From: an uncultured Candidatus Saccharibacteria bacterium
GTDB taxonomy: Bacteria > Patescibacteriota > Minisyncoccia > Sungbacterales > JACQCQ01
Reading direction: 5' to 3'
Length of the DNA stretch: 64,000 bases
NCBI GenBank assembly: GCA_964494945.1
Contig: CAZBTX010000004.1
Coordinates: forward strand, 27,385-91,384
Shown here: piece by piece, positions 1,331 to 49,433 of the stretch
Layout of the letters: the number at the start of each line of letters is the position of its first letter
Numbering within the stretch: the first letter of the stretch is position 1
The notes under the pieces: model-generated
The model's input: the letters and a program-made list of their open reading frames with translations, nothing else
Databases searched by the model: none
What the model was told of the DNA's origin: nothing
Program-made: the position numbers and the translations under genes

Positions 1331-2472
1331 AAGTCATTTTTTTAAGTTCCGATCGTCTGATCCTGGGAGATTCTCCGGCGCGTCGTCGCATGGCGGAGTA
1401 CGGCAGGATATTTGATGAGGTGCACGTTATTGTTTTTGCGAAAGGAGTACGTCGCAAAGAAAATATTTCCGCGAATGTAAGCTACTATACCACGGGTTCA
1501 CTTTCGCGCTGGCGGTATCCCTTTGACGCATTTCTTATCGCCAAAGCAATTATCGCTAAGTCCGGCAGCGTAAAAGGCGACTTTATTGTCAGCGCTCAAG
1601 ACCCCTTTGAGGCCGGGGCAATAGCGTACTGGCTCAAAAAAAGAACCGGCGTGCCTTATCAGATACAAATCCATACAGATTTTCTTTCGCCTTATTTCGT
1701 AAAAGAACACTGGGAGAACCGATTACGTTTACTGACGGCCGGTTTTATATTAGAGAGAGCCGATTGCATACGCGCGGTTTCCCAACGCATCGTTCGTTCC
1801 TTGGTCCTTCGCTACCCCGCTATTTCCAGAGAACGGATTGCCGTACTTCCGGTTTGGGGCGAACCGTTTTCCATTCATCCGGTACCCGAAGCCGGGAGAT
1901 TCAACATTCTGGTTGTTTCCAGATTAGAACCGGAAAAAGGCATAGACGATGCCCTGTCTGCTTTTAAGATGTTCCACGCTCTCGGTGGGAGCGGGCGTCT
2001 GGTTATCGTGGGCAGCGGCAGTCAATATCAAAAACTTCGTAAACGCGCGGAGTCGCAAGACATAGCACCCTTTGTTTCTTTTGAGGGGTGGCAAGCAACA
2101 CTCGGCAAATACTATGAAACGGCCGATGTATTCCTTATGCCATCGCATTACGAAGGATGGGGTATGGCCGCATATGAAGCGGTACGTATTGGTATTCCGG
2201 TGGTTATAACAAATGTCGGACTTGCGGGAGAAGCGGTGAAAGACGGTGAGAACGGCCTCATTGTGCCCGTGGGAGACATAGAAGCCATGGCTCATGCTCT
2301 TCTTAAGGTATCTAGAGGTGAGTTGCGTTTTAGCGGGGCCGTAGGCGCGGATTTACCCCCACACCAGAAAATCACGGGCTTACGCCCGTGGTGTGGGGGT
2401 TTATCGGCAACGCAGGCGGAATATCTGGAACAATATCTTAAGGCAATGAAACTTTGCCAAAAACCAAGCTAA
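1327..2472 (+). CDS. Glycosyltransferase family 4 (GT-B); C-terminal tail reads through a palindromic repeat
   Basis: It carries EGWGMAAYEA..GIPVV.TNVGLAGE, typical of a GT4 C-domain. Its start overlaps the upstream stop as ATGA. The last ~40 codons are encoded by the TTTACCCCCACACC repeat element. Confidence 0.7.
   Translation: MKVIFLSSDRLILGDSPARRRMAEYGRIFDEVHVIVFAKGVRRKENISANVSYYTTGSLSRWRYPFDAFLIAKAIIAKSGSVKGDFIVSAQDPFEAGAIAYWLKKRTGVPYQIQIHTDFLSPYFVKEHWENRLRLLTAGFILERADCIRAVSQRIVRSLVLRYPAISRERIAVLPVWGEPFSIHPVPEAGRFNILVVSRLEPEKGIDDALSAFKMFHALGGSGRLVIVGSGSQYQKLRKRAESQDIAPFVSFEGWQATLGKYYETADVFLMPSHYEGWGMAAYEAVRIGIPVVITNVGLAGEAVKDGENGLIVPVGDIEAMAHALLKVSRGELRFSGAVGADLPPHQKITGLRPWCGGLSATQAEYLEQYLKAMKLCQKPS
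2351..2404. repeat. Palindromic element family 2 copy (ATTTACCCCCACACC-N24-GGTGTGGGGGTTTAT) inside 3' end of GT4 ORF
   Basis: It was verified. Confidence 0.7.
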
Positions 2473-2533
2473 TCATCTCGCCGTCTCGTAATATTTAAGA
2501 TATACTTATAAAAAGATTTTAATTCCCATTATT

Positions 2534-2908
2534 ATGTCGCTTATCACTCTCGGTCTTATAGCTTTCACGGTGCTTTCGGCGGTTTCAAGTCAAACGATAT
2601 TCAAATCCTGGTCCAACCAACTTGGTTCTCAAAGTATTTCGGCCGGGAATGTTCTGGATGTCTTTCTGAAGATTTTACAGAGCCCGCTGATGCTTTTGGC
2701 GCTTATTATCTATGGGCTGGGTTTTATGTCCTGGATCTTTTTGCTTTCCCGCAATGAACTTTCGCTGGTATACCCGGTGGTGCTTAGCGTAAATATCGTA
2801 GTTATGCTTTTTGCTTCCTCCATTTTTTTTCATGAGTCAATCAATTTTTTTCAGCTCCTGGGAACCTTCGTTGTCATAGCGGGCATATATCTGCTATTTG
2901 TCGCTTAA
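2534..2908 (+). CDS. Small 4-TM membrane protein, GtrA/SMR(ArnE/F)-like lipid-linked sugar flippase candidate
   Basis: It is 124 aa with four hydrophobic helices and lies inside a glycosylation locus. Confidence 0.45.
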   Translation: MSLITLGLIAFTVLSAVSSQTIFKSWSNQLGSQSISAGNVLDVFLKILQSPLMLLALIIYGLGFMSWIFLLSRNELSLVYPVVLSVNIVVMLFASSIFFHESINFFQLLGTFVVIAGIYLLFVA

Positions 2909-2915
2909 TACGGCG

Positions 2916-3040
2916 ATACGCCCGCCTAAGTCCGCCTAAATTTTTATAGTGGCGGGTAGGGCGTACGTATGTCTAGAATATTTTGTAGAGTATGATGAAT
3001 CCTGTATATAGATTAAAACTTAGGCGGATTTAGGCGGGTA
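2916..3040. promoter_or_regulatory. Intergenic inverted repeat (CCCGCCTAAGTCCGCCTAAATT / AACTTAGGCGGATTTAGGCGGG) flanking ~75 bp AT-rich spacer immediately upstream of GT4 start
   Basis: Arms of 22 bp at 2921-2942 and 3017-3038 are near-perfect reverse complements. The second arm abuts the ATG at 3040. Confidence 0.5.
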
Positions 3041-4083
3041 TGCGGCTTCTTATCGTAACCCACGCCCTTGATGCCCGGGATACTAATCTCGGGTTTTTCC
3101 ATGAATGGGTCAGGCGGTTCTCTGAAACGTTTGAAGAAGTATTTGTCATAGCGCAGCGCATCGGTTCCGTTGATCTGCCTTCAAACGTTTTTGTGGAATC
3201 TTCCGGAAAGGAGAGGGGCGCCGGCAGATTTATGAGATTTTCCCGTTTTTGGGCGGCCGAGCGGCGTTTTATTTCAAGGACCGATGCTGTTTTTGTGCAT
3301 ATGAGTCCTTTGTATGCGATACTCGCTTGGCCTATGGCCCGCTTTTACGGCCGACCGCTTTATTTTTGGTATGTTCACGGAAGTGTCACATTCTTGCTTC
3401 GCGCGGCAGAGCGCCTGGTAAAACGCGTATTCACGGCTTCTCCGGAAAGTTTTCGCATTCCTTCTAAAAAAACGATAGTGGTAGGGCACGGCGTTGATAC
3501 CGATGTCTACGCTCCGGGAACGCGGGAAAATCGCGGAATTCTAACCATTCGTACACTGGGCAGGATAAGCCGTTCCAAAAATCTGCATATACTGGTAAAA
3601 TCCGCCGTTCTGCTTAAAAAAACTAAACCATCGGGGTGGGGGTTAAGTATTATTGGGGATCCGCCCGATGAGGAGGGCAAGGTCTATCTCAAAGAATTGT
3701 TATCGCTTAGCGAAAAGGAAGGCGTTACTGGAGAGGTCATATTCCATCGGGGAGTTCCGCATTCAGAGACGCCAAAACTTTATCGGGATACCGACATCTT
3801 CGTTAATCTTTCCGAAACGGGGAGCATAGATAAAGCCGTACTGGAAGCCATGAGTTCTGGGTGCTCAATTGTGAGTTCCAACGAGGCCTTTTTCTCCGTA
3901 TTGCCGGAGTCATCGCTCGTAAGAGAATTAACACCCGAAAATGTTGCCGGAGCTATCTTGAAAGCGTGGGATGAAAGTAGACCGCGAATGGACATGCGCA
4001 GAGTTGTGGAAAAAAGATTCAATTTGAGGTCGTTGATAAAAAATATCTCGGAGACAATAAAAAAAGACCAAAGTGAGGCATGA
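3040..4083 (+). CDS. Glycosyltransferase family 4 (GT-B)
   Basis: Its architecture is GT4-like and the reading frame is clean. Confidence 0.6.
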   Translation: MRLLIVTHALDARDTNLGFFHEWVRRFSETFEEVFVIAQRIGSVDLPSNVFVESSGKERGAGRFMRFSRFWAAERRFISRTDAVFVHMSPLYAILAWPMARFYGRPLYFWYVHGSVTFLLRAAERLVKRVFTASPESFRIPSKKTIVVGHGVDTDVYAPGTRENRGILTIRTLGRISRSKNLHILVKSAVLLKKTKPSGWGLSIIGDPPDEEGKVYLKELLSLSEKEGVTGEVIFHRGVPHSETPKLYRDTDIFVNLSETGSIDKAVLEAMSSGCSIVSSNEAFFSVLPESSLVRELTPENVAGAILKAWDESRPRMDMRRVVEKRFNLRSLIKNISETIKKDQSEA

Positions 4084-33483: not shown

Positions 33484-34542
33484 ATGAAAATAAAAATAAT
33501 CGGAGCGGGTTCCATAGGCAATCATTTAGCCCAGGCCTCTCGCAGGATGGGCTGGGACGTAGTGGTTGTGGATAAAGACTCGGAAGCGCTTCGGCGCATG
33601 AAAGAGGATATTTATCCGAAGCGTTACGGCGCTTGGGATGAGACCATTCAGCTTTTTACAAGCGATAAAGAACCTAGGGGTGGATTTGACATAATAGCGA
33701 TAGGCACGCCGCCGGATGCGCGGATGAAGCTGGCGCTGGCCGCACTTCGCGAAGAACCTAAAATACTGCAACTGGAAAAACCGCTTTGTCCTCCAACTCT
33801 GGATGGTCTTCAGGAATTTCTTGATGCAGCGGCAAAGCAACCGGAAACGGTGGTAATTGTAGGGTATGACCACGCAGTTGCCGAATCTATCGGCGAGGTG
33901 GTAAGTATTTTGACAGAAAAAAAGATAGGCGAAGTGGAAACGCTGGATGTTGAGTTCCGGGAACACTGGGGCGGTATTTTTGCCGCACATCCATGGCTTA
34001 GCGGTCCGCAAGATTCATATCTCGGTTTTTGGAAGCGGGGAGGGGGTGCGGGCGGAGAACATTCACACGCGTTGCATCTTTGGCAGTTTCTTGCTGGAAA
34101 AGCTGGGATTGGCGCTTGGAAGAAAATGGGGGTTTCCATGGAGATAAAAACCGATGGCGGCACCGAATATGATTCGGTTTCGGCATTTCTCGTAAACACC
34201 GACAAGGGGAAAGTCGGACGGATAGTGCAGGATGTGGTTACCAAACCAGTGCGGAAATGGATGCGAGCCCAGGGCAGTAACGGGTTCGTTGAGTGGTTTT
34301 GCGGTGGGGTACCCGAAGGAGATCTAGTCAGGTTCTCACTCAGTGGGGGAGAGGTCTCGGAAAAGGTATTCCCCAAAAAACGTCCTGACGATTTTTATCG
34401 TGAGATGCTTCATATGCAGGATATTCTTGATGGTAAAATTAAAGCATCGGAGTCGCCGCTTTCGCTTGATAGCGCTTTATCGGTAATAAAAATATTAAAC
34501 AAGGCCTATCAAGCGCGGTCAGGTACTTTCGAGGTTCTCTAG
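33484..34542 (+). CDS. Gfo/Idh/MocA-family NAD(P)-dependent oxidoreductase
   Basis: It has the Rossmann motif IIGAGSIGNH and the EKPL motif. Confidence 0.6.
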   Translation: MKIKIIGAGSIGNHLAQASRRMGWDVVVVDKDSEALRRMKEDIYPKRYGAWDETIQLFTSDKEPRGGFDIIAIGTPPDARMKLALAALREEPKILQLEKPLCPPTLDGLQEFLDAAAKQPETVVIVGYDHAVAESIGEVVSILTEKKIGEVETLDVEFREHWGGIFAAHPWLSGPQDSYLGFWKRGGGAGGEHSHALHLWQFLAGKAGIGAWKKMGVSMEIKTDGGTEYDSVSAFLVNTDKGKVGRIVQDVVTKPVRKWMRAQGSNGFVEWFCGGVPEGDLVRFSLSGGEVSEKVFPKKRPDDFYREMLHMQDILDGKIKASESPLSLDSALSVIKILNKAYQARSGTFEVL

Positions 34543-38371: not shown

Positions 38372-39538
38372 TCAGTTAGATACTTCCCTGTAAAGGCGGC
38401 GAGTTTCTTCAATCATAGCGTTTATATTGAATAATTTTTCAACGCGATACCTCGCATTTTTTGCCAAATTATCACGGAGCTGACCATCCTCCGCTAGTTT
38501 TCGTATGGCTGCCGCAAGCATTTCCGGGTCTTTCGGCGCAACAAGAATACCCGATTCATTTTGAACCAAGAGATCAGGGATTCCGCCAATATTGGTTGCA
38601 ATAATGGGAAGTCCCGCTGCCATAGCTTCCATAATAACGTAGGGCAGACCCTCTTTTACGGAAGTCAGAATAAAACAGTCAAGCCCCCTTAAGAGGCGCC
38701 AAGCATCCTTCACAAACCCGGTCAAGAAAACCTTATGAGCAGCGTCCAGTTCTTCTATTAATTTTCTTAAGCGGGTCTCATCCTCACCGCCTCCGATAAT
38801 GATGGAAACGGCGTTTTGGGGCAGTTTAGCGGCGGCCCGTATCAGTGTCGGCAGGTCTTTGTTCGCGGTCAGTTCCGTGATAGTCCCGATTATAAAAGGA
38901 GTGTCGTAAAAACTTGCTAAGTCGCGCAGTTCCTTTCTCGCGATGGTACGCTCTACGAAATTTCCGTATTCTCCAATGCCGTTCGGTATCAATGTGAATT
39001 TCCGTTTAGCGATGAAGGGAAAATCTTGGGCCGCCAGATAATCGCGATGAGTAATGACAATGACCTTGTGGGTGAATACCGCGGTAAACCATGAAAAAAA
39101 CCATATGATAGTTCTTGCGACAGTGTTCCTATCTTCGAAGAACGACCAGCCATGTATAGTGACGACTATTTTTGGCACGCCTAGAATCCGTCCCGCCAGT
39201 GCTCCCAGCCCCGCCATTTTGGGGCTATTTAGGTGAAGAATATCCGGCCGCTCGCTTCGTAAAATTGAGATAAGTCGTTTAAGGATTAGAAGCTCACCCA
39301 GCCATCTGATATCACGCCTCATGCCGGAGATAATAATTACTCGTATACCAATGGCCTTGAGGCGTTCAGCGAGTAACCCGGACTCGCCAGCGACGAGAAC
39401 GACATCAAATTGGTTTTTAGCAAGATGCGTCGCCAGATCAAAACAATAGCGCTGCGCGCCGCCCCAGGTGGCCTTGGTAATACCTATGACAACTTTTTTT
39501 CTGCGTTTTGAGTTAGTATCTTCTATTTCCGTCGGCAT
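38372..39538 (-). CDS. Glycosyltransferase family 4 (GT-B)
   Basis: It carries EGLPYVIMEAMAAGLPIIATNIGG. Confidence 0.7.
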   Translation of the reverse strand: MPTEIEDTNSKRRKKVVIGITKATWGGAQRYCFDLATHLAKNQFDVVLVAGESGLLAERLKAIGIRVIIISGMRRDIRWLGELLILKRLISILRSERPDILHLNSPKMAGLGALAGRILGVPKIVVTIHGWSFFEDRNTVARTIIWFFSWFTAVFTHKVIVITHRDYLAAQDFPFIAKRKFTLIPNGIGEYGNFVERTIARKELRDLASFYDTPFIIGTITELTANKDLPTLIRAAAKLPQNAVSIIIGGGEDETRLRKLIEELDAAHKVFLTGFVKDAWRLLRGLDCFILTSVKEGLPYVIMEAMAAGLPIIATNIGGIPDLLVQNESGILVAPKDPEMLAAAIRKLAEDGQLRDNLAKNARYRVEKLFNINAMIEETRRLYREVSN

Positions 39539-39639
39539 AGTCGGATTCTATCACATTCATAATATATAACTCTAAAATAACCGCCGTAGTTCCTTTCGCC
39601 AGATTTTGATTTTTATTGCCGCGATTCCAAGAATTCTAT

Positions 39640-39661
39640 AAGTTTGAGTTATCCACACTTG
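39640..39661. promoter_or_regulatory. Repeated 22-bp motif AAGTTTGAGTTATCCACACTTG containing a consensus DnaA box (TTATCCACA)
   Basis: A second copy lies at 41142-41163 with one mismatch. Confidence 0.5.
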
Positions 39662-39814
39662 CTTCTCAAATCAAATTTCAGTACGATAGAAGTAATTCTA
39701 TTAAGGATTAGGAACGGATTTTATTTCCGAATCGTATTAAGAGCATATGCGGTGGTCGGCATATGCTCGCGTCCCTAGCGACGGGTTAACTTAGAATTAA
39801 TTTAGAATATTATC

Positions 39815-39874
39815 ATGGCAAAGAGAAGAAAGGCGTCCAAGAAGGCCAGAAAGGGCGGCAAGAGGCGAAGATAA
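39815..39874 (+). CDS. Candidate 19-aa Lys/Arg-rich peptide MAKRRKASKKARKGGKRRR followed by a perfect hairpin
   Basis: The ORF was read directly from the sequence. The hairpin AGAAACACCCCC-GCTA-GCGGGGGTGTTTCT lies at 39888-39921. No clear Shine-Dalgarno sequence is present. Confidence 0.25.
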   Translation: MAKRRKASKKARKGGKRRR

Positions 39875-39972
39875 GCCGATTCCCACTATAGAAACACCCC
39901 CGCTAGCGGGGGTGTTTCTATATACGAGGGTTCATAAATTAGCTATATTTAAGTTAATCTAGTTGGTTTTTT

Positions 39973-40094
39973 AACGGCATGATCCCGTTAGAAGCCGCGA
40001 TTGCGAAAGATAGGTTAAAAGTATGTCAATTTTTTCATTTAATATTCTATAAAGCAGAAAATGCGTTTGATCGTGATCTGCTTCTAACGGGATG
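39973..40094. repeat. Palindromic TIR element copy A (ATCCCGTTAGAAGC ... GCTTCTAACGGGAT), hpf ATG inside right arm
   Basis: The 14-bp perfect terminal inverted repeats at 39982-39995 and 40080-40093 were verified. Confidence 0.75.
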
Positions 40095-40505
40095 AGATAC
40101 CAAATTCGTTATACAAAAGTTGACCCCTCGCCGGCGCTCACCGACTATATTGAGAAAAAAATTGTTGATGCCCTACAAAGATTGATCGGCGGGACGGGAG
40201 AGACGCCTTGGCAGATCTTGATAGAAGTGGGGCGCGATACCCTGCATCACAAAAAGGGCAATGTTTGGTTTGCTGAAGTATCCGGCGCCGGTCCTTATGG
40301 GCCACTCCGCGTTCGGGCCGAGGGGTCCGATATACATGAAGCGATTGATATTGCCGAAGACGACTTAAAGGCCAACCTTTCCAAATTAAAAGGCAGAATT
40401 GTCGCTAAGGGTCTGCGTGCCGCGCGCCGGGTGAAACGCATTATGCGCCTTTCGCGCTTCGCTCGTTTTTTCCGCAAAGGCAGAATTCGCGAAGAGGGCA
40501 TCTAA
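40092..40505 (+). CDS. hpf: Ribosome hibernation promoting factor / RaiA (S30EA family)
   Basis: It carries ALTDYIEKK and HEAIDIAEDDL..L.KLK, typical of the S30EA family. Confidence 0.65.
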   Translation: MRYQIRYTKVDPSPALTDYIEKKIVDALQRLIGGTGETPWQILIEVGRDTLHHKKGNVWFAEVSGAGPYGPLRVRAEGSDIHEAIDIAEDDLKANLSKLKGRIVAKGLRAARRVKRIMRLSRFARFFRKGRIREEGI

Positions 40506-40551
40506 TTTCCATATTCTTATAAAATTGCGTATCATGCCCTAATGAAAGGAG

Positions 40552-40974
40552 GTGGTTTTCGTGCCTTCCATACCGCTCGTTAACAAGTTCCAGCCGCTTA
40601 CCGAAGCGCCGCCGGAAGTTGCAGCGCTTCTTGACCGCACCAAAAGCACAAGTCATGCAAGGGCGCTGTTGTCGCTTCTCATTCAGTCCCCGGCGGGGAT
40701 TCAGATCGGCACATGCACAGGGGGCGCAGATGTAATCAAACTTCAGAAGTGCATCTCTTGGCTTGGTCGGGAGCCGGGAGCATTTCTTCGCTGGGGCGAA
40801 CTGCTTTCGGCAAAAAACGGGATTCGCTATCTTCTTCAGAGTGCCGGTCTCCAGTACGGCATCTGGTGCTCATGCCCCGACTGGCTTGGCGGACGAAGAA
40901 AAGGAAACTACCGCGGCGGGGAAGTTCCAGTTTCCGTAGGTCTTGTCGACAAACAGAAACCAGTAACAGAGTGA
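40552..40974 (+). CDS. Hypothetical protein
   Basis: It is an ORF only, with a terminator immediately downstream. Confidence 0.3.
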   Translation: MVFVPSIPLVNKFQPLTEAPPEVAALLDRTKSTSHARALLSLLIQSPAGIQIGTCTGGADVIKLQKCISWLGREPGAFLRWGELLSAKNGIRYLLQSAGLQYGIWCSCPDWLGGRRKGNYRGGEVPVSVGLVDKQKPVTE

Positions 40975-40975
40975 C

Positions 40976-41012
40976 CGGGGCCGCATTCTTCGGGGTGCGG
41001 CCGCTTTTTTTA
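40976..41012 (+). terminator. Rho-independent terminator (GGCCGCA-loop-TGCGGCC + T8)
   Basis: It is a hairpin followed by GCTTTTTTTA. Confidence 0.7.
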
Positions 41013-41141
41013 TTTAAACTTTATGACTATTATTGGTTTTTGTCATAGCAAAGTTCGTGAATAGAAAATCTGAATTATAAAATGCGAAATTTATTTTAAA
41101 GTTGTCAAGAATATTCACATTGCCATCGTTGGTTTTTCGTC

Positions 41142-41163
41142 AAGTTTGAGTTATCCACAGTTG
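41142..41163. promoter_or_regulatory. Second copy of DnaA-box-containing motif AAGTTTGAGTTATCCACAGTTG
   Basis: It was read from the sequence. Confidence 0.5.
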
Positions 41164-41312
41164 AAGTTTTACGGGATTCTTGCAAAAATGAGAGCAGGAG
41201 TGAAAAAGAACGCTGAGACACTTAACGAAAGCGTTTAACATAAGGAAGTGCGAAACCAACGTCGTTCGGCGCGGTACGCGCTACCCCATGCGGAACGTTT
41301 CTCGAAAAGGAA

Positions 41313-41687
41313 ATGCATAAGTCGCTTCATATCCTCGCGGACCTCTATAACTGTCGCGGGGACGAAAAATATCTCACAAAGGTAAGCACGGTAAAAAAGA
41401 AAGTTTTGCAGATGATAAAGCGGGCCGGCTTTAAAGTTGTGGCTTCGCGTTTTCATAAATTTCCACCCGGCTCCAACGCGACCGAAGGCGGTATTACGGG
41501 CGTTATCGTGGTTTCGGAGTCGCACTTGACCATCCATACCTGGCCGGAAAAACATTACGTCAATTTTGACGTGTTCTTTTGCAGTTATTCGCGGGACAAC
41601 TCGCATAAGACCAGAAACATCTTCCGCGAATTTTCCTCGCTCTATAAACCAAAAAAACTTCGTAAGCGTGAAGTTTGGAGGGATTAA
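41313..41687 (+). CDS. speH: S-adenosylmethionine decarboxylase proenzyme, small bacterial/archaeal type
   Basis: It has the ESHLTIHTWPE signature with the pyruvoyl-precursor Ser. Confidence 0.75.
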   Translation: MHKSLHILADLYNCRGDEKYLTKVSTVKKKVLQMIKRAGFKVVASRFHKFPPGSNATEGGITGVIVVSESHLTIHTWPEKHYVNFDVFFCSYSRDNSHKTRNIFREFSSLYKPKKLRKREVWRD

Positions 41688-41822
41688 TCCCGTTAGAGGT
41701 CAGGTTTGCTCCGCGCAAACCGGCGGCAACCAAAACGGTTCCATAATAAGTAGTTTTAGAAAGGGTACTCGGTATTTCAAAGCAAGTTAACTTTCGAGGT
41801 TAGTTGCCTACCTCTAACGGGA
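41688..41822. repeat. Palindromic TIR element copy C (TCCCGTTAGAGG ... CCTCTAACGGGA) between speH and secA
   Basis: The 12-bp perfect terminal inverted repeats were verified. It is a variant of the 39982 and 49318 element. Confidence 0.7.
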
Positions 41823-41909: not shown

Positions 41910-44642
41910 ATGGCCCTATTGGCTAAGATTTTCGGAGACGCCAATGAGCGCGCGGTGCGTGAGTATTTACCTATGGTGGCGGGTATCAACGCGCTTGAGC
42001 CGGAATTTAAAAAGTTATCGGAGGAGAATTTAAAAGCAAAAACAGCCGAATTCAAAGAGCGGATGAGCAAAGGAGAAACGTTGGATGACCTGCTCCCGGA
42101 GGCCTTTGCGACCGTTCGCGAAGCGTCCCAAAGAACGCTCGGCCAGCGGCATTTTGACGTGCAGTTAATGGGCGGTATGGCTTTGCACCAAGGAAAAATT
42201 TCAGAGATGAGGACAGGCGAAGGCAAAACTCTGGTAGCCACACTACCCGCGTATCTGAACGCGCTATTGAGTAAGGGAGTTCATATCGTAACGGTTAACG
42301 ACTATTTGGCGCGGAGAGACGCCGTGTGGATGGGGCAGATTCATCATGCCTTGGGGCTGACAGTGGGAGTATTGAATCATGAGGCGTCGTATATTTATGA
42401 TCCAACACACGAAAATCCAAATGATCAAAACAACTTAGACAAAACACGGGATACATTAGGAGCATTTAAGGTGGTGCATGAATTTTTGCGTCCCGTGACG
42501 CGCCGCGAAGCGTATGAGGCCGACATAACTTACGGCACCAATAATGAATACGGTTTTGATTATCTTCGCGACAACATGGTGTATGCAACGGCCCAACTCT
42601 CTCAAAGAGAGCACAATTTCGCCATCATTGACGAGGTGGACTCCATTTTAATAGATGAAGCCAGAACCCCGCTGATAATTTCGGCTCCCGATGAGGAATC
42701 CGGCGAGCTTTACAAGACCTTTTCGCAATTTGTGCCGCGCCTTTCAGCGCCCGACGACTTCACGATTGACGAAAAACTAAAAGCCGTGGCTATTACAGAG
42801 CATGGCATTGATAAGGTGGAGGGCATCATCGGCAAGAAACTTTACGAAGGCGGGCACGAAGCCGAGTCCATTAAATTAGTGCATCATCTAGAGCAAGCCC
42901 TAAGAGCTCATTCTTTGTATTTAAGAGATAGGGATTATGTGGTTAAGGATGGCGAGGTAATTATTGTTGACGAATTTACGGGGCGTTTAATGCCGGGCAG
43001 GCGCTGGTCGGAGGGATTGCATCAAGCGATTGAAGCCAAAGAGGGAGTTCAAATTCAGCGCGAATCAAAGACACTTGCCACTATTACCTTCCAGAATTAT
43101 TTCCGCATGTACCCGAAGTTAGCTGGTATGACGGGAACGGCCGCGACCAACGCCGAAGAATTTCATAAGGTTTATAAATTGGAAGTTGTTTCCGTTCTCA
43201 CTCACCGTCCTAATGTCCGCGAGGACAGGTCGGACCTGGTATTTCGCACCGAGAAGGGGAAATTCACAGCGCTGGCTCGAGAAATAAAACGTCTTAATCA
43301 AATTGAGGCGTCGGTGTTAATCGGCACTGTTTCCATTGAAAAGAACGAGCGGCTTTCCGAGATATTAAAGCGTGAAGGCGTGCCGCATAGGGTGTTAAAC
43401 GCCAAGAATCATGAAGAGGAAGCGGCGATTATCGCGCAAGCCGGGCGCAAGGGAGCTGTCACGGTTGCCACAAACTTAGCCGGTAGAGGTGTGGACATAA
43501 TTTTAGGCGGTAATCCACCAACCGCTGAAGAAGCGGAATTGGTAAAACAAAATGGGGGATTGCATGTTTTCGGCACGGAGCGGCACGAAGCGCGCCGCAT
43601 TGATAACCAGTTAAGAGGCCGCTCCGGACGCCAAGGCGACCCCGGCGTTACTCAATTTTATCTTTCACTGGAAGACGACCTAATGCGCGTTTTCGGCTCT
43701 TCACGCATTAAAAGCATGATGGAAAGTTTCGGCATTCCCGAAGACGAGCCGATAGAAAATCGCATGGTCTCTAAAGCCATTGAATCGGCCCAGGCCAAAA
43801 TTGAAGGATTCCATTTTGACGCCCGGAAGCATGTCTTGGAATACGACGACGTTATGAATAAACAGCGCGAAGCGATTTACAGAATGCGGAAATCCATTTT
43901 AGGTACAGCCGAAAATCCCGCGGTGCTACAGGTTCAAGTGCATGTAATGATACGCGACGAGGCATCAGCCATTGCCGAGGCACATGCAGCTGCTGAAAAT
44001 TTGGAAGAAGGCATTGATGAATTGAAGAAATTTATTGCCGCGTTCATCCCCGGCGATTTTGAGAACGAAGACCTTAAAAAACTGGATGAGGCCAAGAATC
44101 TCGGACGAGAAGGCGCGCGCGAGTTTTTGCAAGAAATAGTCGCCGAAATTTTGACGGCGGCGTATACGAGAAGAGAGAAGGATTTGGGTGAGCCGTTCTC
44201 GCAAGCGGTGCGAACGGTGATGCTCCAAACCATTGATTTTATTTGGATAGACCATCTGACGGAAATGGACCATTTACGCGATTCGGTGCGACTCCGCGCC
44301 TACGGCCAGCGCGACCCGTTGGTGGAATATAAAAATGAATCGGTGCGACTCTTTAGATTATTGCAAGCCAGCATCCGCCAATATTCCATCCAAACAATAT
44401 TTAGGGTGGGGGAGAAAACAGGAAACAGAACACAGGACACAGCGCGTCAAGAACCCAACTTGATTTTCCAATCGGCTAAAGATGAATCAAATTCCGCCGG
44501 CGCTAAAGTATATACGCCGTCAGCCAAAAAAGAACCCGGCCGCAACGACCCCTGCCCGTGTGGAGCGGTCAATCCCGCGACAGGGGAAGTATATAAATGG
44601 AAGAAATGTGGCATGGTTAATGCCTCATATCATAAGAAGTGA
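41910..44642 (+). CDS. secA: Preprotein translocase ATPase SecA
   Basis: It has the DEAD-like motor motifs and the C-terminal zinc motif CPCG...C. The protein is 910 aa. Confidence 0.9.
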   Translation: MALLAKIFGDANERAVREYLPMVAGINALEPEFKKLSEENLKAKTAEFKERMSKGETLDDLLPEAFATVREASQRTLGQRHFDVQLMGGMALHQGKISEMRTGEGKTLVATLPAYLNALLSKGVHIVTVNDYLARRDAVWMGQIHHALGLTVGVLNHEASYIYDPTHENPNDQNNLDKTRDTLGAFKVVHEFLRPVTRREAYEADITYGTNNEYGFDYLRDNMVYATAQLSQREHNFAIIDEVDSILIDEARTPLIISAPDEESGELYKTFSQFVPRLSAPDDFTIDEKLKAVAITEHGIDKVEGIIGKKLYEGGHEAESIKLVHHLEQALRAHSLYLRDRDYVVKDGEVIIVDEFTGRLMPGRRWSEGLHQAIEAKEGVQIQRESKTLATITFQNYFRMYPKLAGMTGTAATNAEEFHKVYKLEVVSVLTHRPNVREDRSDLVFRTEKGKFTALAREIKRLNQIEASVLIGTVSIEKNERLSEILKREGVPHRVLNAKNHEEEAAIIAQAGRKGAVTVATNLAGRGVDIILGGNPPTAEEAELVKQNGGLHVFGTERHEARRIDNQLRGRSGRQGDPGVTQFYLSLEDDLMRVFGSSRIKSMMESFGIPEDEPIENRMVSKAIESAQAKIEGFHFDARKHVLEYDDVMNKQREAIYRMRKSILGTAENPAVLQVQVHVMIRDEASAIAEAHAAAENLEEGIDELKKFIAAFIPGDFENEDLKKLDEAKNLGREGAREFLQEIVAEILTAAYTRREKDLGEPFSQAVRTVMLQTIDFIWIDHLTEMDHLRDSVRLRAYGQRDPLVEYKNESVRLFRLLQASIRQYSIQTIFRVGEKTGNRTQDTARQEPNLIFQSAKDESNSAGAKVYTPSAKKEPGRNDPCPCGAVNPATGEVYKWKKCGMVNASYHKK

Positions 44643-49169: not shown

Positions 49170-49298
49170 ATGAATAAGTTAGTATTTTTATTAATAATGG
49201 CAGCGTTAGTATGGGGGGCTTATAAACTTGTCTCGCCTTACTTTTTTACCGACCAGGCGGGTGGGAAACTTAATGAATTCAAAGCCATGGGGCAATAA
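49170..49298 (+). CDS. Candidate 42-aa single-TM peptide
   Basis: The ORF reads MNKLVFLLIMAALVWGAYKLVSPYFFTDQAGGKLNEFKAMGQ, with a G-rich stretch upstream. Confidence 0.2.
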   Translation: MNKLVFLLIMAALVWGAYKLVSPYFFTDQAGGKLNEFKAMGQ

Positions 49299-49303
49299 TA
49301 ATT

Positions 49304-49433
49304 TTCTAACGGGGATGATCCCGTTAGAAGCCGCGATCGCGGAAGCGGGATTTAAAGTTAAAGGATGTTATATTCAAAGAAAATAATATGGGCAGATTTG
49401 CGCGTTTGATCGCGATCTGCTTCTAACGGGATG
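49304..49433. repeat. Palindromic TIR element copy B with extra half-site; CYTH gene ATG inside right arm
   Basis: The arms are ATCCCGTTAGAAGC at 49318-49331 and GCTTCTAACGGGAT at 49419-49432. An upstream half-site TTCTAACGGG lies at 49304-49313. Confidence 0.75.

Follow-up and report, generated by a model that had tools for sequence, protein, structure and literature searches.

Organization of the Locus

The window analyzed here is a stretch of 64,000 nucleotides of contig CAZBTX010000004.1, and our subject is the interval 39539-41312 within it. The interval contains two AT-rich intergenic regions, here called site 1 and site 2, which each hold one copy of the 22-mer AAGTTTGAGTTATCCACA(C/G)TTG (39640-39661 and 41142-41163, both on the forward strand). 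Site 1 is followed by a 19-codon open reading frame (ORF) encoding a polybasic peptide, the mini-ORF, and then by the gene for an HPF/RaiA-type ribosome hibernation factor (HPF). Site 2 is followed by a gene for S-adenosylmethionine (AdoMet) decarboxylase. The host belongs to the Parcubacteria of the Candidate Phyla Radiation (CPR); the identical HPF and the neighboring hypothetical protein are labeled Candidatus Sungbacteria in their source records. The features of the two sites are as follows.

39649-39657, forward strand: DnaA box 1, an exact match to TTATCCACA, with a predicted position of -45 to -37 in promoter P1
39659-39687, forward strand: putative promoter P1, with -35 hexamer TTGCTT (39659-64), 17-nt spacer and -10 hexamer TACGAT (39682-87)
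39741-39768, forward strand: leader RNA hairpin, with a 10-bp stem and the loop GGUGGUCG
39815-39874, forward strand: mini-ORF, 19 codons plus stop, encoding MAKRRKASKKARKGGKRRR, in which 12 of 19 residues are basic and none is acidic
39887-39922, forward strand: terminator-like hairpin, with a perfect 16-bp stem and the loop CUAG, followed by UAUACG
41151-41159, forward strand: DnaA box 2, an exact TTATCCACA in the window
41161-41189, forward strand: putative promoter P2, with -35 hexamer TTGAAG, 17-nt spacer and -10 hexamer AAAAAT
41200-41320, forward strand: remnant of an upstream AdoMet decarboxylase paralog, a GTG and about 7 codons joined, in a different reading frame, to the final 38 codons
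41313-41687, forward strand: AdoMet decarboxylase gene (Pfam PF02675, E = 1.4e-25), served by P2

Related loci, referred to by L numbers, were gathered with HPF as the anchor from two GTDB genomes, two JGI metagenomes and 17 exact-protein look-ups. Removal of duplicates left 15 distinct lineages, 13 of which have the mini-ORF.

A Box-Promoter Module at Two Sites

The two 22-mers are the only matches in the 64-kb window when up to three mismatches are allowed, and none was expected (100 shuffles). The repeat, which the original prediction had picked out from the sequence alone, is real and non-random. Both copies match TTATCCACA at 9 of 9 positions, in keeping with the earlier description of this 9-mer as the canonical DnaA box. 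A third exact TTATCCACA in the window (33567-33575, reverse strand) lies within the ORF at 33484-34542, where it forms codons for VVVDKD, and has neither promoter context nor conserved surroundings. This third copy is probably a chance occurrence.

Thirteen of the 22 repeat bases, TTATCCACA-N-TTG, are conserved in the relatives, whereas the 9-nt flank AAGTTTGAG is common to both sites in this genome only, indicating that these 13 bases are the functional core. Information content falls to background immediately outside the 9-mer and N-TTG. Lack of conservation had been named in the original prediction as a point that would count against the motif; the core proved to be conserved, with diverged flanks. 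A TTGAG-type flank is a feature of site 2 in relatives (L001 and L003), and box 1 of the window carries the flank AAGTTTGAG that is otherwise typical of site 2. In most relatives murB lies between the GT4 glycosyltransferase gene and box 1 (L005, L007, L008, L009, L015 and L017, at approximately 1700-3100); it is not at that position in the window (39539-39648) or in L002. The site-2-type flank at box 1 is a hint that the sequence here was locally rearranged or converted.

Box 1 is exact at 9/9 positions and on the forward strand in all 13 lineages that have the mini-ORF, 141-200 nt upstream of the ATG, and this invariance holds despite HPF proteins that are down to 31% identical across the same 13 lineages. 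Presence of the box tracks presence of the mini-ORF, with L014 and L019 lacking both. In the relatives box 2 departs from the consensus at no more than one base, either by C to T at position 5 or by A to C at position 9, giving the forms TTATTCACA and TTATCCACC. Across about 200 kb of sequence the box followed by TTG was found only at the two orthologous sites, plus one intragenic match with a single mismatch.

At site 1 the box is followed by 1 nt (2 nt in L002), TTGnnn, a further 16-17 nt and TAnnAT in 11 of the 13 lineages. The same layout precedes the AdoMet decarboxylase gene or genes in 10 lineages, and the module is always on the forward strand and always in the same two places. The -35 and -10 hexamers have the separation of a sigma-70-type promoter (16-18 nt) and a conserved position, and the -35 hexamer agrees with the consensus only in its TTG. 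A generic promoter scan did not detect P1, because its -35 hexamer fits the consensus at only 3 of 6 positions. With transcription assumed to begin 7 nt past the -10 hexamer, start sites are predicted near 39694 for P1 and near 41196 for P2, and the box occupies -45 to -37, with its center near -41. The repeat very probably represents an operator-promoter core that two sigma-70-type promoters have in common. The original prediction had put forward a pair of DnaA-box promoters or a promoter module in two copies, and the fixed box-promoter geometry at two orthologous positions, in up to 13 lineages, agrees with it.

Two perfect DnaA boxes 1.5 kb apart in AT-rich spacers might also suggest a replication origin, or a locus of the datA/DARS type that titrates or reactivates DnaA. 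None of the marks of an oriC was found. The cumulative GC skew rises monotonically through the window with no inversion; there is no cluster of boxes with an AT-rich unwinding element, nor a second box within 100 bp; and neither dnaA nor dnaN is among the window ORFs scanned. The boxes are, moreover, locked to promoter hexamers in a fixed orientation. A replication origin was ruled out because there is no skew inversion, no box cluster and no dnaA among the scanned ORFs, and a role of the boxes as origin or datA/DARS-type locus is exceedingly improbable. An origin had already been judged the less likely reading when the boxes were first noted, and the unturning skew and the single boxes support that judgment.

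A Conserved Polybasic Mini-ORF

Translation of 39815-39874 gave MAKRRKASKKARKGGKRRR followed by a stop codon, the 19-aa polybasic product that had been predicted. Orthologues of the mini-ORF are found at the same place in 13 lineages, with 8-21 codons and the consensus MAKKRKAAKKGGKKRR. All differences in length are in frame, the ATG-GCA start is nearly invariant, and the Arg codons alternate between the AGR and CGN families with the residue retained. Proportions of synonymous (pS) and nonsynonymous (pN) differences were calculated over all 66 pairs, with the two other frames of the same nucleotide alignment as controls. In the mini-ORF frame pS was 0.63 and pN was 0.14, a ratio of 0.22, as against ratios of 1.93 and 0.74 in the other two frames. 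Purifying selection is seen at every position of the mini-ORF, the Ala-Ala and Gly-Gly pairs included. An identical 16-mer peptide is encoded in three lineages with 4-7 synonymous differences, a comparison that is circular in that the sequences were picked for peptide identity.

The in-frame indels and the frame-specific pN/pS indicate that the mini-ORF is very probably translated and that the sequence of the peptide matters. Purifying selection confined to its own frame supports the coding option, one of two that the original prediction had offered for the ORF, and the frame is retained in 13 lineages, which answers the conservation check proposed there.

These data also bear on a different reading of the P1 unit, as a non-coding small RNA in which the open frame is a by-product of purine-rich sequence. 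The purine-rich region is indeed open in other frames too, the unit has a structured 5' hairpin with a conserved loop, and the mini-ORF has no Shine-Dalgarno sequence and is skipped by gene callers. However, the low pN/pS is restricted to the ATG frame, the switches between AGR and CGN codons keep the residue, the indels are all multiples of three and ATG-GCA is nearly invariant. We consider a small RNA of this kind very unlikely.

In its extreme shortness and basicity, and in having been missed by gene callers, the mini-ORF product resembles the ribosomal proteins bL37 (24 aa, Actinobacteria), bS22 (33 aa) and eL41, and like the genes of such tiny proteins the mini-gene adjoins a ribosome-associated gene. 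Tiny basic ribosomal proteins have repeatedly escaped annotation (PMC10085706, PMC10618245). Sequences of bL37 and bS22 taken from PDB matches were compared with the peptide by direct reading, and only the N terminus of bL37 showed a resemblance: MAKR-RK in the window peptide against MAKRGRK in bL37, whose sequences include MAKRGRKKRDRKHSKANHGKRPNA. The conserved C-terminal ANHGKRPN of bL37 is absent from the mini-ORF peptide, and the 8-21 aa of the mini-ORF products contrast with the 24 aa of bL37. The absence of this tail and of any PDB profile match at E <= 10 leaves identity with bL37 unsupported. The pocket of bL37 is otherwise occupied by an extension of uL30 (PMC10618245), a protein often missing in CPR bacteria (bioRxiv 10.1101/2022.01.07.475337). 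By this analogy a ribosomal role of the peptide may be entertained as a testable idea, and the variable length, with as few as 8 aa in L020, speaks against any fixed structural part.

The Leader Hairpin and the Terminator

Between P1 and the mini-ORF lies a hairpin with stem arms at 39741-39750 and 39759-39768 and an 8-nt loop. A 10-bp hairpin had been predicted at 39743-39770; it exists, with coordinates that were off by 2 nt, and its nature as a covarying RNA element had been missed. In the alignment 90% of cells pair, 8 of 10 pairs vary on both sides, and none of 500 shuffles matched the score, which collapsed in controls with slid alignments. U.G pairs are found in 9 of the 11 leader sequences, indicating that the pairing is selected in the forward-strand RNA. 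The alignment shows no departure from C-GRUGGUCG-G in the loop and its closing pair. Both this hairpin and the terminator were predicted independently by RNAalifold. When the window and 14 loci were searched with a covariance model, each of the 11 Sungbacteria-like lineages yielded a single strong copy (38.7-45.5 bits); further copies in the same set amounted to weak noise matches only. A search of the leader against Rfam returned nothing even at E <= 10. Pairing of the loop with the 3' end of 16S rRNA, pairing with the ORF, and mimicry of 5S rRNA were each considered, and none was consistent across lineages.

The hairpin is similar to the autoregulatory leaders of ribosomal-protein and small-protein mRNAs in being a covarying element of the 5' untranslated region, with an invariant loop, in front of a gene for a basic and probably RNA-binding product. 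It differs from them in lying about 45 nt before the start codon without covering it and in having no Rfam match.

The second base of the loop is always a purine, and the loop always holds an AUG or a GUG (window 39752-39778). This codon shares the reading frame of the mini-ORF in three cases, the window, L002 (5759-5860) and L017 (2854-2967). It was rejected as the true start of the mini-ORF because a stop intervenes in the window and the frame is different in L001. Gene callers skip the mini-ORF except in L017/L018, where a 37-aa product is extended to the loop AUG, and this extension is artificial.

The mini-ORF is followed by a 36-nt perfect palindrome (39887-39922), whose predicted fold has a 16-bp stem and a 4-nt loop. 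A perfect hairpin had been predicted at this place with a stem of 13 bp; the hairpin is present and the stem is longer. A GC-rich hairpin stands 5-18 nt past the mini-ORF stop in the relatives, with the stem in 11 of 11 aligned lineages and a T-run in most relatives. The T-run of the window terminator is interrupted (UUUCUAUAUA).

The closeness of the terminator to the mini-ORF raises the possibility of attenuation, in which the mini-ORF would be a regulatory leader peptide and translation of its Lys/Arg codons would control the terminator and read-through into the HPF and polyamine genes. At 5-18 nt past the stop, the terminator stem would overlap a terminating or stalled ribosome. L020 has one box-promoter and no second box; after this promoter come a mini-ORF of only 8 codons, HPF, two AdoMet decarboxylases and a spermine/spermidine synthase. 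There is also precedent in the peptide-sensing upstream ORFs of polyamine genes, such as speFL and the MAGDIS upstream ORF of AdoMet decarboxylase, which the mini-ORF resembles as a short ORF directly before a terminator in a polyamine-gene neighborhood. In contrast to these systems, no alternative structure was seen for the leader, with no antiterminator pairing in either the minimum-energy or the centroid fold; most lineages do not have the mini-ORF upstream of AdoMet decarboxylase; and the whole peptide is conserved, with purifying selection at all positions rather than at Lys/Arg codons alone. In addition, -10-like hexamers before HPF in L001, L003 and L004 imply a separate, leaderless HPF transcript, and in 10 lineages a second copy of the promoter serves AdoMet decarboxylase. 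These points weaken the attenuation reading, which we consider quite unlikely.

The AdoMet Decarboxylase Gene and the Remnant of Its Paralog

A promoter module at site 2 was suggested in the original prediction, which missed that a polyamine gene is served by it. In relatives the AdoMet decarboxylase gene is syntenic with spermine/spermidine synthase (Pfam Spermine_synth) and SecA. Two AdoMet decarboxylase paralogs follow site 2 in seven relatives (L001, L003, L005, L008, L017/L018 and L020), and a single paralog is retained in several relatives.

The 150 nt of apparent untranslated region at site 2 are instead the remnant of a paralog. Positions 41204-41317 match residues 104-135 of the 141-aa L001 paralog with 72% identity (E = 2e-15), and the N terminus of the remnant, VKKNAET, resembles MKKNQRT of L001. 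As read from the sequence, the first AdoMet decarboxylase paralog of the window is reduced to this remnant by internal deletion.

Genes found around the mini-gene in relatives encode HPF, AdoMet decarboxylase, spermine/spermidine synthase, agmatine deiminase, Orn/Arg decarboxylase and a deoxyhypusine-synthase-like enzyme. In the more distant L012 (3955-7414) the genes next to HPF and the mini-ORF are those for agmatine deiminase (PAD_porph), a deoxyhypusine-synthase-like enzyme and Orn/Arg decarboxylase. These polyamine neighbors reinforce the link between HPF, the mini-ORF and polyamines.

The Candidate Box-binding Protein

DnaA activates or represses transcription at promoter-proximal boxes with the consensus TTATCCACA, for example at nrdAB, mioC and dnaA (PMC8203912, PMC11317965). 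The two sites resemble DnaA-controlled promoters (E. coli nrdAB, mioC and dnaAp, and the regulons of B. subtilis and Caulobacter) in having this consensus beside a sigma-70 promoter, near enough to the -35 hexamer to help or hinder RNA polymerase (PMC8203912). They are unlike them in having a single box, rather than a pair or cluster, with a fixed 1-nt junction and a center near -41, and in their CPR/Parcubacteria host and their targets, a micro-protein and AdoMet decarboxylase rather than replication or nucleotide genes.

We regard DnaA as the probable box-binding protein. It is favored because the site is asymmetric, as expected for the monomeric domain IV, and because it is very unlikely that a conserved 9-mer would equal the DnaA box by coincidence. 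The relaxed DnaA consensus TTATNCACA allows changes at box positions 5 and 9, and variation of box 2 at these two positions only fits the tolerance of DnaA.

The main rival is a different transcription factor. The module and the mini-gene would stand, and the 9-mer would be the operator of another lineage-specific factor or a sigma-associated extended -35 element. Several observations suit this alternative: the site is single, whereas DnaA in vivo prefers double boxes (PMC11317965); the rigid 1-nt junction and the invariant TTG suggest a composite 13-bp site; and polyamine synthesis and a micro-protein are not classical targets of the DnaA regulon (PMC8203912). As regards a general promoter element, the motif is absent from the other promoters of the 64-kb window. 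As regards another factor, equality of the conserved 9-mer with the DnaA box by chance is about 1 in 10^5, and cellular DnaA of ordinary specificity would be expected at such a consensus site anyway. Asymmetry of this kind is usual for sites of the monomeric DnaA domain IV, unlike those of dimeric helix-turn-helix factors, and the changes in box 2 are confined to positions that DnaA tolerates. On balance a factor or element other than DnaA is unlikely.

Were DnaA the binding protein, activation would be favored over repression by occlusion, because a center near -41, a rigidly kept spacing and -35 hexamers that are weak, with only TTG conserved, recall activator-dependent class II promoters.

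Neighboring Genes and a Separate Hairpin Repeat

The remaining features of the locus are as follows.

38372-39538, reverse strand: GT4 glycosyltransferase gene
39963-40091, forward strand: hairpin repeat element A, with the inverted repeat CCCGTTAGAAGC (39984-95) and GCTTCTAACGGG (40080-91), ending exactly at the HPF ATG
40092-40505, forward strand: gene for the HPF/RaiA-type ribosome hibernation factor, whose 137 aa end in a basic tail (Pfam PF02482, E = 1.1e-10)
40552-40974, forward strand: hypothetical 140-aa protein, no Pfam match
40979-41002: terminator past the gene for the hypothetical protein
41910-44642, forward strand: SecA

Positions 1-39538 of the window are mostly a large glycan and cell-envelope cluster, with many GT4 and GT2 glycosyltransferases, asparagine-synthase-like proteins, a carbamoyltransferase, methyltransferases, Wzy_C/TPR and a sugar transferase. 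A tRNA search of the window found none, and Rfam 15 at gathering scores gave no matches in the window and 12 related loci.

A database search with the 140-aa protein found two proteins only, 99% and 83% identical to it. Genes of similar size without a Pfam match occupy its position in L009 and L015, and a similar ORF is found in L002. The 140-aa protein and the L002 ORF share the motif CSCPD(W/F)LGG.RKGNYR.

Hexamers resembling a -10 element lie 5-9 nt before the HPF ATG in L001 (4790-4830; TATCAT/ATAATT), L003 (2975-3003; TACTAT) and L004 (1100-1126; TAGAAT), which suggests a leaderless HPF mRNA in these lineages. No such hexamer is visible before the HPF ATG in the window, where the hairpin repeat stands instead, and the repeat is absent before HPF in L001, L003 and L004. 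In L019, which has neither box nor mini-ORF, the HPF spacer (1511-1760) contains a large inverted repeat, GAGACCATTACAAAACTC ... GAGTTTTGTAATGGTCTC, enclosing further palindromes.

The hairpin repeat before HPF was missed when the first intergenic region was originally described. Element A lies inside the reported interval and outside the DnaA-box module, and is one of three copies in the window (the others are at 41687-41821 and 49296-49430). Members of the family are intergenic, about 110-140 nt long, and have the constant core CCGTTAGA...TCTAACGG and the ends CCCGTTAGA...TCTAACGGG; the window has 7 occurrences of the 9-mer TCTAACGGG, where 0.45 would be expected. The stem extension differs among copies yet remains complementary. 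Copies in relatives were seen in L008 (~3350-3500), L015 (1227-1376, 1489-1590 and ~3417-3500), L017 (4644-4745) and L020 (2921-3000 and 3507-3585). The 3' arm abuts the HPF ATG in four lineages (the window, L008, L015 and the distant L020) and, in the window, also the ATG of a CYTH gene; other copies begin right after stop codons. Copies A and B in the window have ATGA at both borders, like a target duplication, and the predicted fold of element A buries the HPF start codon. The repeat had no match in Rfam. Possible readings are a REPIN/MITE-like element and a stem that controls translation by sequestering the start codon.

Discussion

The mechanism that we propose combines the two sites. DnaA would bind the single boxes as a monomer, contacting RNA polymerase at the -35 region. 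P1 would drive a stand-alone unit of about 230 nt, just upstream of HPF, that comprises the leader hairpin, the mini-ORF without a Shine-Dalgarno sequence and an intrinsic terminator. P2 would drive AdoMet decarboxylase, which catalyzes the committed step toward spermidine and spermine. DnaA level or replication status would in this way be coupled to how much of two polycations, the peptide and spermidine/spermine, is supplied, and the peptide would most likely bind rRNA, ribosomes or DNA as a counter-ion-like ligand. We infer a common theme of polycations that bind nucleic acids or ribosomes. Taken as a whole, co-control of the polybasic peptide and polyamine synthesis by DnaA-regulated promoters has, in our estimate, a little better than an even chance of being correct.

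A number of observations weigh against this mechanism or parts of it. As regards DnaA, neither site has the pair of boxes 2-3 bp apart that DnaA preferred in E. coli chromatin immunoprecipitation sequencing, where 13 of 32 single consensus boxes were bound (PMC11317965), and within 100 bp on either side of the two sites no second box with up to two mismatches is conserved in position. A longer composite site for some other protein could include the invariant TTG, which would then not be a -35 element, and in L012 the box is not followed by TTG at all. As regards the mini-gene, a Shine-Dalgarno sequence was not found within 30 nt of the mini-ORF ATG in any lineage, the sequence being A/U-rich instead. 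The length range of 8-21 codons is unusual for a structural ribosomal protein. A profile of 10 mini-ORF peptides matched no PDB chain at E <= 10, and the peptide, padded from 19 aa with an upstream codon to reach the 20-aa search minimum, matched nothing in NCBIfam or Pfam. The two most distant lineages, L012 and L020, lack the GRUGGUCGG hairpin and have a GGUCGA core only.

A bolder extension of the proposal is that the micro-protein is widespread in Parcubacteria and binds the ribosome or nucleoid, for example in an rRNA pocket left open in the uL30-poor CPR ribosome, with its mRNA controlled through the GRUGGUCG hairpin and its synthesis switched together with that of spermidine by DnaA at a class-II-like single box. 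We put this forward as a tentative and rather improbable scheme.

The CPR/Patescibacteria are mostly uncultured, and their transcriptional regulation and small proteins are almost uncharted. The pattern of a DnaA box, 1 nt, TTG, 17 nt and TAnnAT is deeply conserved and could be used genome-wide to define a putative DnaA regulon. The locus also exposes a gene that annotation systematically misses; its product is a micro-protein of 8-21 aa, and purifying selection on it is clear. Should the peptide be ribosomal, it would be relevant to the way in which the reduced CPR ribosome makes up for absent proteins; if it is not, the locus would still offer a clean case of a conserved micro-protein gene equipped with a promoter, leader and terminator of its own. 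The locus would link replication control, polyamine synthesis and ribosome hibernation. If DnaA does switch both the peptide and spermidine, the replication initiator would govern the polycation supply of the cell from a position beside a ribosome-hibernation gene.

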